From the NCBI GenBank assembly GCA_964428395.1, contig CAYRYB010000006.1, positions 8,453-72,452 of the forward strand: DNA of 64,000 nt, in the 5' to 3' direction. The position numbers and the translations under genes are program-made. This document shows, piece by piece, positions 55,458 through 57,532 of this stretch (positions are counted from its first letter, which is position 1; each line of letters starts with the position of its first letter). The notes beneath the pieces were generated by a model. It was not told the DNA's origin. It worked only from the letters and a program-made list of their open reading frames with translations, and ran no database searches. The DNA is from an uncultured Methanosarcinales archaeon. GTDB taxonomy: Archaea; Nanobdellota; Nanobdellia; Woesearchaeales; SKGA01.

Positions 55458-56390
55458 TTAAACGTCTTGAAGACCCTCATTTGTTACCTGATAAATACAT
55501 TCTGCATCAGCTAAGTTTGGCGCATCAACAAGTTTAGCAACACGAGTTCCTTTTTTCCCCTTTCGCAAATAAATGCGAAAAGTACTATTATGCGCGACAA
55601 TGTTTCCGCCAATTGCTTCTGTAGGATCACCAAAAAACGCGTCTGGCTTTGACATTACCTGATTTGTTACAAATACACAAAGATTGTGCAAATCCGCAAG
55701 TTTCGCTAAGACATGCATGTGTTTATTGAGTTTTTGCTGGCGTTCTGCAAGGGTTCCTCGACCAACAAACTCTGCTCTAAAATGAGCTGTTAATGAGTCG
55801 ACTACAACAAGACGAACATTATCTCCTTCTTTTACTAAATCATCAACTTTCTCTGCAAGAAGCATTTGATGATCTGAATTAAAAGCTCGTGCTACACGAA
55901 TGTTTTTAAGAACAAGCTCTGGTTCAAGGCCAAATCCTTTTGCAATTTGAATTATTCGTTCTGGTCGAAACGTGTTTTCAGTATCAATGTAAACAGCAAT
56001 TGCATCGGGCGTGTCAACCTGACAACTCACACAAAGAACGTGAGCAATTTGTGTCTTAGAACTACCATACTGTCCAAAACATTCACTAATAGCACCCGTC
56101 TCAAAACCGCCATCAAGCATATCATCAAAGCCCTTTGCACCAGTAGATATTTTAATAACTTTTTCTCGTTTAGCAAGCAAGTCTTCGCCGGACTGAAAAC
56201 CCATATCCATCATACTACGCGCAGCCTGAATCATCTTTCTTGCAGCAGTTTCTGTAACACCACTAGCATTCACTAACTCTGCAGGTGTCGCAACAGCAAT
56301 CGCCATAAGATTGTCAAAACCTCCAGCCTGTAATTTCTCAACTGTGGCTGCACCAACGCCAGGCAAGTCCTCTATTTTTGGGTCTCCCAT
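55458..56390 (-). CDS. radA: DNA repair and recombination protein RadA
   Basis: N-terminal HhH (LPGVGAATVEKLQAGGF), Walker A GQYGSSKTQ, and Walker B LVVVDSLTAHFRAEF. 310 aa. Confidence 0.9.
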   Translation of the reverse strand: MGDPKIEDLPGVGAATVEKLQAGGFDNLMAIAVATPAELVNASGVTETAARKMIQAARSMMDMGFQSGEDLLAKREKVIKISTGAKGFDDMLDGGFETGAISECFGQYGSSKTQIAHVLCVSCQVDTPDAIAVYIDTENTFRPERIIQIAKGFGLEPELVLKNIRVARAFNSDHQMLLAEKVDDLVKEGDNVRLVVVDSLTAHFRAEFVGRGTLAERQQKLNKHMHVLAKLADLHNLCVFVTNQVMSKPDAFFGDPTEAIGGNIVAHNSTFRIYLRKGKKGTRVAKLVDAPNLADAECIYQVTNEGLQDV

Positions 56391-56392
56391 TT

Positions 56393-56716
56393 TCAGTCTT
56401 CTCCTATAATTTCTCCTTCTTCTTTGATATTTACATATTCAAATGCTTTGTTTAGCACTAAAACTGCTTTTGGCAAATCATTTACTCGCAAAGAATTCGT
56501 TGTTTTCCAAGCATCTTGCTTGTCTTTATAGGTGCGCTCTAACGTTATAGTGCGAAATAAGTTTGTTGCACCATCTTTTCCTTTTGCTTCATTTGTCCAA
56601 ATCGTTGCTGTTATTGGACTTGCTCGAAATTTTCGCTCGGGTGTATTCTTATTCACGTTTATGTTTTCCATGGTAATAACCTCCTTGGTTTCCCTTTTTA
56701 TTTCACTCATCGACAC
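56393..56716 (-). CDS. Hypothetical protein immediately upstream of radA and co-oriented with it
   Basis: 107-aa ORF. Its stop lies 2 bp from the radA start. No motif recognised. Confidence 0.3.
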   Translation of the reverse strand: MSMSEIKRETKEVITMENINVNKNTPERKFRASPITATIWTNEAKGKDGATNLFRTITLERTYKDKQDAWKTTNSLRVNDLPKAVLVLNKAFEYVNIKEEGEIIGED

Positions 56717-56805
56717 GTTTGATGAGGGGGTTTGTTAAAAGAGAGATTGACGGAGATGTTTATATACGTTATGTGAACTTGACCAGTGCACACCCTTTTT
56801 AGAAC

Positions 56806-56993
56806 CGTAGTCTCAAAGTAGTCTCAATACAGTCTCAGTCTCAAAAAGGTCAGTCTCAAAGGTAAAAACTGAGACTGACGCATACCCCCTTGTTTCCTGT
56901 GGAAACAAATATTTTACAGTCTCAAAAATCAAAAACCGTCTCAAAAACAGTCTCAAGACAGTCTCAAGACAGACTCTGAGACTCTGAGACTGG
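56806..56993. repeat. Array of about 9 direct GTCTCA(A/G)A and 3 inverted TGAGAC short repeats flanking an ORB-like dyad
   Basis: gtagtctcaaa / gtagtctcaata / cagtctcagtctcaaaaa / cagtctcaaag / ctgagactgacg / cagtctcaaaaa / ccgtctcaaaaa / cagtctcaagaca x2 / ctctgagactctgagactgg. The central 56890-56908 is TTGTTTCC-TGT-GGAAACAA (perfect 8-bp inverted repeat), with CCCCC adjacent. Confidence 0.85.
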
Positions 56994-57031
56994 AGAAAAT
57001 TTTAAATAAAGAAGAAGATTTCTTACACCTA

Positions 57032-57532
57032 ATGAAAGATTTGTTTCTTCGAAAAGAATTAAAACAACCTGCAAGTAAAGAACTTCATAAGCTCGTAAAA
57101 CGCGTAGAACAGCTTAAAAAAACACTTCTAGAGCTTGAACAAACAACAGCAAACGAACCGGAATCTAATGAAAGCGCATTAGAACTTCCTCTTGAAGAAC
57201 CAATACTCATGGAAGAAGAACCAGAATATATTGTTCTAAAAAGCCCAAAACAAAAGCAAAACACTCACACAGCTAGTTTAGAGCAAGAAGCTATTGCAAC
57301 AGTTACAAAAAACAAGAAACACATTATTAAACAAAAAATCATTGGCGTTATCAGTAAAAACAAGGTTACCACAAAACAACTAAAAGAAATTATTGTAGAT
57401 AAACATCGTTATTGCTCAAAAGCAACATATTATCGTTATGTACATGAACTAAAAGCAGAAAATCTGTTAGAATCAATTATTGTTAATCAAAAAGAATACT
57501 TATATGGTATTCAAAAAGAATACCATATCTAA
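57032..57532 (+). CDS. Hypothetical protein with a C-terminal HTH-like region
   Basis: 166 aa with a charged N-terminal half. The C-terminus KATYYRYVHELKAENLLESIIVNQKEY suggests a wHTH. Lies immediately downstream of the repeat array. Confidence 0.35.
   Translation: MKDLFLRKELKQPASKELHKLVKRVEQLKKTLLELEQTTANEPESNESALELPLEEPILMEEEPEYIVLKSPKQKQNTHTASLEQEAIATVTKNKKHIIKQKIIGVISKNKVTTKQLKEIIVDKHRYCSKATYYRYVHELKAENLLESIIVNQKEYLYGIQKEYHI

Follow-up and report, generated by a model that had tools for sequence, protein, structure and literature searches.

Iteron plasmids such as pPS10, pSC101 and P1 carry direct iterons, a box for the host initiator and, at the promoter of the binder gene, inverted copies that serve autorepression. 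In E. coli, the datA and DARS loci consist of initiator boxes situated away from the origin, together with sites for an accessory DNA-binding protein. Partition loci of the ParR/parC and TubR/tubC type have phased short direct repeats upstream of the autoregulated gene of the protein that coats them, TubR being a winged-helix protein. Features that recall these systems are found together in one intergenic region of a Woesearchaeota (DPANN) archaeon, within the stretch of 64,000 nucleotides that was analysed as a whole (the 64-kb window). The region contains an origin recognition box (ORB), two arrays of the hexamer GTCTCA and an adjacent open reading frame (ORF) of 166 codons, termed ORF166, which encodes a putative DNA-binding protein. 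It is read here as an Orc1-linked, self-regulated nucleoprotein cassette and not as the main origin of the chromosome, a reading that is given about an even chance of being correct. To our knowledge, almost nothing is known of how replication starts and is controlled in DPANN archaea, and it is by assumption that their origins are placed at orc1.

At oriC1 of S. islandicus, neither of the two inverted ORBs can be dispensed with (PMC12141716). Orc1/Cdc6 proteins also appear to have roles in transcriptional regulation (PMC3607249), and a non-origin cluster of ORBs downstream of oriC2 in Haloarcula hispanica has been proposed to repress that origin (PMC4010727). Two other DNA-binding proteins of Sulfolobus are of interest. 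WhiP, the dedicated initiator of oriC3, is a tandem winged-helix protein related to Cdt1; oriC3 works without Orc1, and capture of an extrachromosomal replicon has been proposed (PMC3607249). UBP, an abundant protein of the nucleoid, has hundreds of sites, and there is one ucm per Sulfolobus origin (PMC12141716). DPANN genomes are 0.7-1.4 Mb in size and have a single Orc1/Cdc6 (bioRxiv 10.64898/2026.05.13.725050).

The divergent intergenic region is 360 bp in length and separates an operon of a small ORF and radA on the minus strand from ORF166 on the plus strand. GTCTCA is present nine times on the plus strand (56810, 56821, 56832, 56838, 56853, 56919, 56938, 56950 and 56961), and the inverted form TGAGAC three times (56870, 56977 and 56985). 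The 181 bp from 56810 to 56990 hold 12 of the 26 matches to the hexamer in the whole window, where 0.04 copies would be expected at the rate prevailing in the remainder of the window (Poisson P(≥12) ~3e-26). GTCTCA is not a generic repeat of the genome, because the whole-window total of 26 shows no excess over shuffled sequence (22.6); a second GTCTCA array was not found elsewhere in the 64 kb. Between the two arrays lies a perfect dyad, TTGTTTCC-TGT-GGAAACAA (56890-56908), with CCCCC directly before it (56885-56889). The central 21-mer, 56885-56905, reads CCCCCTTGTTTCCTGTGGAAA on the plus strand and TTTCCACAGGAAACAAGGGGG on the minus strand. An initial annotation of this DNA had described nine direct and three inverted copies in about 190 bp, the perfect dyad beside CCCCC and a divergent setting beside a small ORF resembling a helix-turn-helix protein, and all of these features are confirmed. 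The elements of the cassette, from left to right in window positions, are as follows.

56759-56766, minus strand: putative TATA box of the divergent operon of the small ORF and radA, ~45 bp from the left arm
56810-56858, plus strand: left arm, five direct copies of GTCTCA at spacings of 11, 11, 6 and 15 bp
56870-56875, minus strand: terminal inverted copy of the left arm, TGAGAC, 9 bp from the G-string
56885-56905, minus strand: ORB, with the G-string at 56885-56889 and the dyad core at 56893-56905; the exact 21-mer adjoins Orc1/Cdc6 genes elsewhere
56906-56918, no strand: A/T-rich spacer of 13 bp from the ORB dyad to the first hexamer of the right arm, kept in length but not in sequence
56919-56966, plus strand: right arm, four direct copies of GTCTCA, an A-tract following each hexamer
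56977-56990, minus strand: terminal inverted pair of the right arm, TGAGAC at 56977 and 56985, directly upstream of the ORF166 promoter
56992-57008, plus strand: putative ORF166 promoter, with a purine-rich B recognition element (BRE), GGAGAAAA, and a TATA box, TTTTAAATA, in agreement with the archaeal BRE/TATA consensus
57032-57532, plus strand: ORF166, 166 amino acids, the proposed GTCTCA binder

In several relatives the inverted copy of the left arm touches the G-string (GGGGGTGTCTCA). The inverted copies of the right arm end 2 bp ahead of the conserved BRE/TATA, and the position of the TATA-box centre, 28 nt upstream of the ORF166 ATG, suggests a leaderless mRNA. At the other end, a conserved TTTAWATA stands beside TTGWCCAGTG at the presumed divergent TATA box, to which an orientation and a function are assigned provisionally. 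The divergent operon of the small ORF and radA may be co-regulated with the cassette.

Judged by its sequence, the central box is a genuine archaeal ORB, the same as that present at orc1-linked origins. Exact matches to TTTCCAYAGGAAAYAAGGGGG were sought in one genome per species (185,579 species, 596 Gb). They were found at 54 loci, all archaeal, where about one is expected by chance (4^-19 x 2^-2 x 1.2e12), and 8 kb were fetched around each locus. Clustering of the flanking ORFs revealed a Walker-A protein of ~400 amino acids adjacent to the box at 15 loci; in most cases the small subunit of PolD comes next. When one of these Walker-A proteins was searched against a database, the matches bore the name Orc1/Cdc6, and the Pfam domain that they carry, PF09079, is taken to be Cdc6_C. 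When tblastn is added, the loci with an Orc1/Cdc6 gene within the fetched 8 kb rise to 18 of the 54. As the exact 21-mer is shared with ORBs adjacent to orc1, the box is the same sequence as that used at orc1-linked origins by the conserved Orc1/Cdc6 of these lineages, and Orc1/Cdc6 very probably binds it in the cassette as well. The initial annotation had pointed only to a likeness to an ORB; the exact 21-mer beside orc1/cdc6 genes of other DPANN archaea goes further than this.

With a relaxed pattern, many of the orc1-adjacent loci display an inverted pair of ORBs, with the dyads facing inward and the G-strings outward. The DNA between the two boxes of these canonical pairs has an AT content of 0.70-0.81 with 40-bp peaks of 0.78-0.97, and lies 0.07-0.21 above the locus average. 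A search with a Woesearchaeal Orc1 gave thousands of near-equidistant matches (75-79% identity), among which the orc1 locus of a genome that bears the cassette is not distinguishable.

The exact box is also found in other positions. A solo exact ORB lies ~70-350 bp upstream of a TBP gene in four loci (L042:5625-5645, L047:5201-5221, L007:4818-4838 and L058:4798-4818), and in three of the four MCM follows the TBP gene; these boxes could represent another type of origin, or mark genes of replication and transcription as members of an Orc1 regulon. Solo perfect ORBs are present directly ahead of orc1 start codons as well. Two contigs of MAG274 end exactly at an ORB and have identical flanks (L023:2-22 and L035:2-22), which suggests an assembly break at a repeated segment containing the ORB. 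Four matches to the 21-mer in Methanococcoides (L013:5400-5420, L025:6476-6496, L051:1300-1320 and L052:1582-1602) were rejected as ORBs; they are inside the coding sequence of an RtcA-like RNA 3'-phosphate cyclase (FFPQEIRGG) and probably reflect coincidence at the coding level.

Close homologues of ORF166, with 63-70% identity, are present in five syntenic genomes. In a five-way alignment the hexamers, the central box and the promoter motif GGAAAATTTTAAATAA are invariant, and the spacers diverge. Conservation of the dyad, which had been singled out at the outset, is partial: the core TTTCC-TRT-GGAAA and the adjoining CCCCCTT are kept in the relatives, but the outer TTG/CAA of the 8-bp arms is not. 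More distant loci were recovered by a DNA scan, by look-ups of family members and with a family profile. The array, the ORB and a gene of the ORF166 family occur together in 18 of 18 distinct loci (the window and 17 others), and the association of the repeats with the ORF at 57032, posed as a question for related genomes in the initial annotation, is found in all of these loci. Its recurrence at the 17 others shows that the arrangement is not due to chance. Four of the 18 have unrelated neighbours, for example an M50 peptidase with SpoU, a glycosyltransferase-like membrane protein, an S-layer-like protein and Cbf5. Because the cassette is also present in these other gene neighbourhoods, its association with radA is incidental, and a DNA-damage regulon linked to radA was dropped from consideration on the same ground.

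The layout is constant in the 18 loci. To the left of the box there are 3-6 direct hexamers, then 1-3 inverted ones, then the ORB; to the right there are a spacer, 3-5 direct hexamers, 1-3 inverted ones, the BRE/TATA and the gene. Copy number varies among relatives. Spacings between direct hexamers peak at 6, 11 and 12 bp, and the spacer from the ORB to the right arm measures 11-13 bp in 11 of the 18 loci. This near-fixed spacing is counted as pointing to a stereospecific link of the arrays to Orc1. The ORB is single in 15 of the 18 loci and is present as two tandem direct copies in L024, L048 and L065. A scan of metagenome contigs with the ORF166 alignment added one locus only, a duplicate of L002.

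The GTCTCA arrays are most likely the binding sites of ORF166 itself. Among the 54 box loci, GTCTCA is enriched at those with an ORF166-family gene (5-12 copies in nine of ten). A second enriched class comprises Pacearchaeal loci that have an analogous coiled-coil winged-helix gene and up to 14 copies of CAGACA, and the lone exception to the hexamer classes is L053, with nine copies of TGTGAA. GTCTCA was not found near orc1-adjacent ORBs among the scanned loci; its arrays are present only beside ORF166-family genes. A full hidden Markov model search yielded 425 clusters of the ORF166 family at 50% identity, and the predicted recognition helix, IVDxxxYCSKA[TS]FYRY, is nearly invariant in the 150 best family representatives. 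That an invariant helix (CSKA[TS]FYRY) matches an invariant hexamer is counted in favour of the arrays belonging to ORF166.

The best available evidence comes from a distant family member, P0136, whose helix reads CSKSSFYRL. Its locus has ~17 direct copies of TTCCCA/GTCCCA and inverted TGGGAA/TGGGAC beside the promoter, and no ORB. A different hexamer thus accompanies a different helix within the same design, which suggests that the array ahead of each gene is bound by the product of that gene. The design is consistent with an autoregulated winged-helix protein and a cognate repeat operator, the fold, the sites at the promoter and the co-variation all being in agreement. An iteron-type operator for the adjacent helix-turn-helix protein had been among the roles initially suggested, and it is this suggestion that the co-occurrence in all 18 loci and the change of hexamer with recognition helix in P0136 favour. 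As a separate observation, the P0136 locus (L068:2100-2500, the same as L070:80-440) displays a perfect dyad, ATTTATCG-T-CGATAAAT, where the ORB would be expected. For a further variant, P0114 (helix CGRTTFYDY), no array is present within the 318 nt covered.

The ORF166 protein starts with an MKDLF motif that is invariant in its nine closest homologues and has a winged helix-turn-helix signature, IVDxxxYCSKATYYRY, at the C-terminal end. A structural model from an alignment of 27 sequences predicts a coiled coil at residues 14-40, a disordered acidic linker at 41-76 and a winged helix with a predicted local distance difference test score (pLDDT) above 90. Structural neighbours of the winged helix are the PadR, ArsR/NolR/SqrR, Fur/PerR and MarR regulators and SSV1 F-93. 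By structure comparison the winged helix is single and of the regulator type, and does not have the Rep, Cdt1 or Orc fold. Searches against Pfam, NCBIfam and PHROG gave no family match beyond a sub-threshold FUR, and no homologues were found on plasmids or viral contigs.

A module of analogous design is present in Pacearchaeota-type genomes, where an exact ORB, often two in tandem, and CAGACA/TGTCTG arrays lie inside an ORF of ~228 amino acids that consists of a coiled coil, a linker and a winged helix (L011:274-960, L012:4724-5434, L017:1832-2515, L020:1968-2654, L029:3049-3717, L037:6035-6769, L040:7212-7877, L041:3136-3846 and L054:4899-5597). The tandem ORBs are read in different frames (VPQEIRG and STGNKGVPTD), which argues for a constraint on the DNA. 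The orc1 gene is 1.9 kb from the module in L041 and 5.3 kb in L040. In profile-profile comparison the ORF166 family and the Pacearchaeal proteins match at E 0.015-0.2, which is not significant, and the latter are therefore treated as analogous and not homologous. In having the repeats within the ORF these loci recall WhiP, whose binding repeats are likewise internal to its ORF (PMC3607249). TTCACA/TGTGAA is a third hexamer that accompanies ORBs in a lineage-specific manner. It is found at ORBs between PolB and membrane-protein genes (L053:5380-5700, L031:2150-2420 and L050:1740-2030), and L053 has a mirror layout, with TTCACA on one side and TGTGAA on the other.

The self-regulated, Orc1-linked cassette proposed here would have three linked parts: one high-affinity ORB for Orc1/Cdc6, two GTCTCA arrays of the same polarity and the adjacent gene of the binder. 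ORF166 would dimerise via its coiled coil, and the flexible linker would allow the two winged helices to take neighbouring hexamers in either orientation. Helical phasing would set the bound ORF166 on one face of the DNA, such that a cooperative complex could form on both sides of an Orc1 monomer. Occupied inverted copies, which abut the BRE/TATA, might feed back on ORF166 transcription. The region would then represent a replication-linked control or landmark site, which couples the expression of ORF166 to Orc1 or links the availability or state of Orc1 to the site; candidate roles are the timing of ORF166 expression by Orc1, the control or titration of Orc1, and a chromosomal landmark. As there is no other array in 64 kb, the protein-DNA complex with Orc1 is probably the functional product, and as the only dense target of ORF166 in that stretch is its own upstream region, the protein is unlikely to be just a regulator.

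An origin-like element had been suggested in the initial annotation, with further ORB copies and an AT-rich unwinding element nearby to be looked for. A canonical or main chromosomal origin at the cassette is not supported. No further ORB was detected in the 64-kb window at up to four mismatches, the box being present as a single copy. Its flanks have an AT content of 0.59 and 0.68 compared with 0.65 for the locus, with a 40-bp maximum of 0.75; they are no richer than the locus average, and an AT-rich unwinding element is absent from the site. The window has no tblastn match to Woesearchaeal Orc1, MCM, PolD or PolB, and an Orc1 gene was found in none of the cassette loci. The GC skew at third codon positions (GC3 skew) displays no switch at the site: in minus-strand genes it is +0.197 +/- 0.05 on the left and +0.191 +/- 0.045 on the right. 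Coding GC3 skew is -0.22 in plus-strand genes and +0.21 in minus-strand genes in all five segments of the window, a strong asymmetry independent of gene orientation. As the asymmetry is the same in every segment, the whole window appears to lie in one replichore. Among control loci of 8 kb with orc1-adjacent ORB pairs, the skew flips in L034 and L044 and does not in L046 and L039; these short loci are inconsistent, and the skew result is therefore given moderate weight.

The alternative that fares best is an unusual origin formed of iterons and an ORB, either accessory, dormant or lineage-specific, at which Orc1 and ORF166 open the DNA and load MCM. Such an origin is considered unlikely. It would account for an ORB that is perfect and does not differ from those of orc1-linked origins, for the helically phased direct repeats and for the inverted copies at the promoter of an adjacent DNA-binding gene. 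The cassette stays one unit across gene neighbourhoods, as a replicator-initiator pair would, and in no genome scanned are exact ORB matches found at both the cassette and orc1. The analogous ORB-plus-CAGACA module of L041 lies 1.9 kb from orc1 without another ORB there, and WhiP is a precedent (PMC3607249). An origin of this sort would be comparable to Sulfolobus oriC3 with WhiP, or to iteron plasmids in which Rep iterons are joined by a DnaA box. However, the cassette has one ORB and not an inverted pair, both members of which are essential at S. islandicus oriC1 (PMC12141716), and unlike every canonical pair examined it lacks an AT-rich unwinding element. The GC3 asymmetry keeps its sign across the site, and the long ribosomal-protein operon on the right would meet head-on a fork leaving it. 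The single regulator-type winged helix of ORF166, which does not have the Rep, Cdt1 or Orc fold, and the lack of plasmid or viral-contig homologues also count against such an origin. With respect to known classes, then, the cassette shares the ORB sequence with ORB-type origins but not multiple ORBs, an AT-rich element, an adjacent orc1 or a skew switch; with iteron replicons it shares phased direct repeats and inverted promoter copies, but not a Rep-type initiator with plasmid relatives.

Three considerations nevertheless weigh against a cassette that is not an origin. The exclusion of an origin leans on a skew test that has mixed controls and can draw on only 7 kb of sequence on the right of the cassette. 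Iteron-type replicons have the same layout, in which direct iterons and a box for the host initiator are combined with inverted repeats at a promoter and a neighbouring gene for a DNA-binding protein. In the Pacearchaeal locus L041, moreover, the ORB-plus-array module is the only ORB near orc1. A more general proposal, which is possible but tentative, is that Woesearchaeales, and in parallel form Pacearchaeales, carry a second class of chromosomal replicator, either an iteron-type origin or a datA/DARS-like locus. In this class, a single Orc1 box would lie between hexamer iterons that serve a dedicated co-factor with a coiled coil and a winged helix, and the gene of the co-factor would be beside or around the site. 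In its datA/DARS-like form it would control the availability or the nucleotide state of the initiator, and would represent the first archaeal counterpart of such loci.

A partition element had also been considered initially. In its present form the proposal is a centromere-like or chromosome-organising site, in which ORF166 coats the arrays, as ParR does parC or TubR does tubC, and forms a segregation or landmark complex. A partner with its gene at another locus would be recruited through the conserved MKDLF peptide and the acidic linker; this is rather improbable. At least ten short repeats at ~11 bp phasing upstream of the binder gene, in autoregulatory geometry, would fit such a site, as would the invariance of the N-terminal motif in the nine closest homologues, the apparent lack of other targets in 64 kb and the resemblance to parC and tubC. 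Yet a gene for a partner NTPase (ParA, ParM, TubZ or SegA) was not found beside ORF166, let alone in an operon with it, and the conserved perfect Orc1 box at the centre is left unexplained.

An ordinary operator of an autoregulated transcription factor, in which the ORB is the site of a second regulator with Orc1 acting as a repressor and no higher-order role, is quite improbable. The winged helix is indeed of the regulator type and the sites abut the promoter, and the solo perfect ORBs upstream of tbp-mcm and before orc1 starts suggest an Orc1 regulon. But an operator needs far fewer than the 12-14 sites that are distributed over 180 bp to the left and right of the ORB, and it would make little sense for a plain regulator to have, in 64 kb, no dense target but the region upstream of its own gene. 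A structured leader or small RNA with GUCUCA paired to UGAGAC is highly improbable, for although the plus strand folds better than shuffled sequences (z = -3.7), every predicted pair comes from invariant hexamers with an unfavourable covariation term (+1.64), the majority of direct copies stay unpaired although they are conserved to the same degree, copy number differs between relatives and Rfam gives no match above noise.

The genes on the left flank of the cassette are the following.

55458-56390, minus strand: radA
56393-56671, minus strand: small ORF of 92 amino acids, co-oriented with radA and ending 2 nt before it

To the right of ORF166 are genes for a KOW/L14e-like protein, L34e, an EMC3/YidC-like protein, SecY and further ribosomal proteins. 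The ORF166 gene is monocistronic and is convergent with the L14e-like gene. The small ORF is kept in every syntenic locus and has no match in Pfam, NCBIfam or PDB. Its leader, 56672-56735, displays an invariant GGGAAACCAAGGAGGT in the Shine-Dalgarno region and a GAGGGGG; the ORF may encode an unknown partner of RadA with a regulatory site of its own. The conserved GAGGGGG (56726-56732) was rejected as a second, inverted ORB, as no dyad precedes it. At the far end of the window, positions 1-2000 have a GC content of 0.47 compared with ~0.35 elsewhere, an ORF at 240-1439 without a Pfam match, and no rRNA by Rfam.

The components of the cassette, an ORB, iteron-like arrays and an autoregulated winged-helix protein, are each of a known kind. 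The combination appears to be new; neither it nor the ORF166 family is described in the curated libraries and literature searched. Of major interest is that the best Orc1 box of the clade lies away from orc1, in a conserved cassette with an uncharacterised protein family and the arrays ascribed to that family. If the reading is correct, ORF166 binds GTCTCA and Orc1 binds the central box, cooperatively and at a fixed distance of 13 bp. In either case, the locus would reveal a new way in which archaeal origins are specified or a non-origin site that controls the initiator.

The closest likeness in sequence is to the Orc1/Cdc6-ORB origins, that is, those of the Sulfolobus oriC1 type and the orc1-adjacent pairs of DPANN archaea. 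The ORB of the cassette is identical and is presumably bound by Orc1/Cdc6. These origins differ in having an inverted pair, an AT-rich DNA unwinding element and an adjacent orc1, whereas the cassette has one ORB and arrays of a second motif. Sulfolobus oriC3 with WhiP is similar in being a chromosomal site with an adjacent gene, whose winged-helix product binds repeats beside or inside that gene (PMC3607249). In contrast to WhiP, ORF166 has one PadR/ArsR-like winged helix and a coiled coil, and in contrast to oriC3 the cassette carries a perfect ORB. UBP and ucm likewise provide a second small sequence-specific protein beside ORBs bound by Orc1 (PMC12141716), but the motif ascribed to ORF166 clusters in a single array, adjacent to the ORF166 gene.

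Iteron plasmid replicons may be compared with the cassette in their direct iterons, inverted promoter copies and host-initiator box. They differ in that ORF166 is not a Rep protein (WH1-WH2), the repeat is 6 bp and not 17-22 bp, and the cassette is chromosomal and without an AT-rich region. Compared with ParR/parC and TubR/tubC, the cassette would stand apart in the lack of a partner NTPase gene and in its central Orc1 box. The datA and DARS loci, and with them the ORB cluster of Haloarcula hispanica, seem to be of a similar design, with initiator boxes off the origin and sites for accessory proteins; relative to datA and DARS, the cassette would be distinguished by its single box and by a dedicated accessory protein that it encodes itself.

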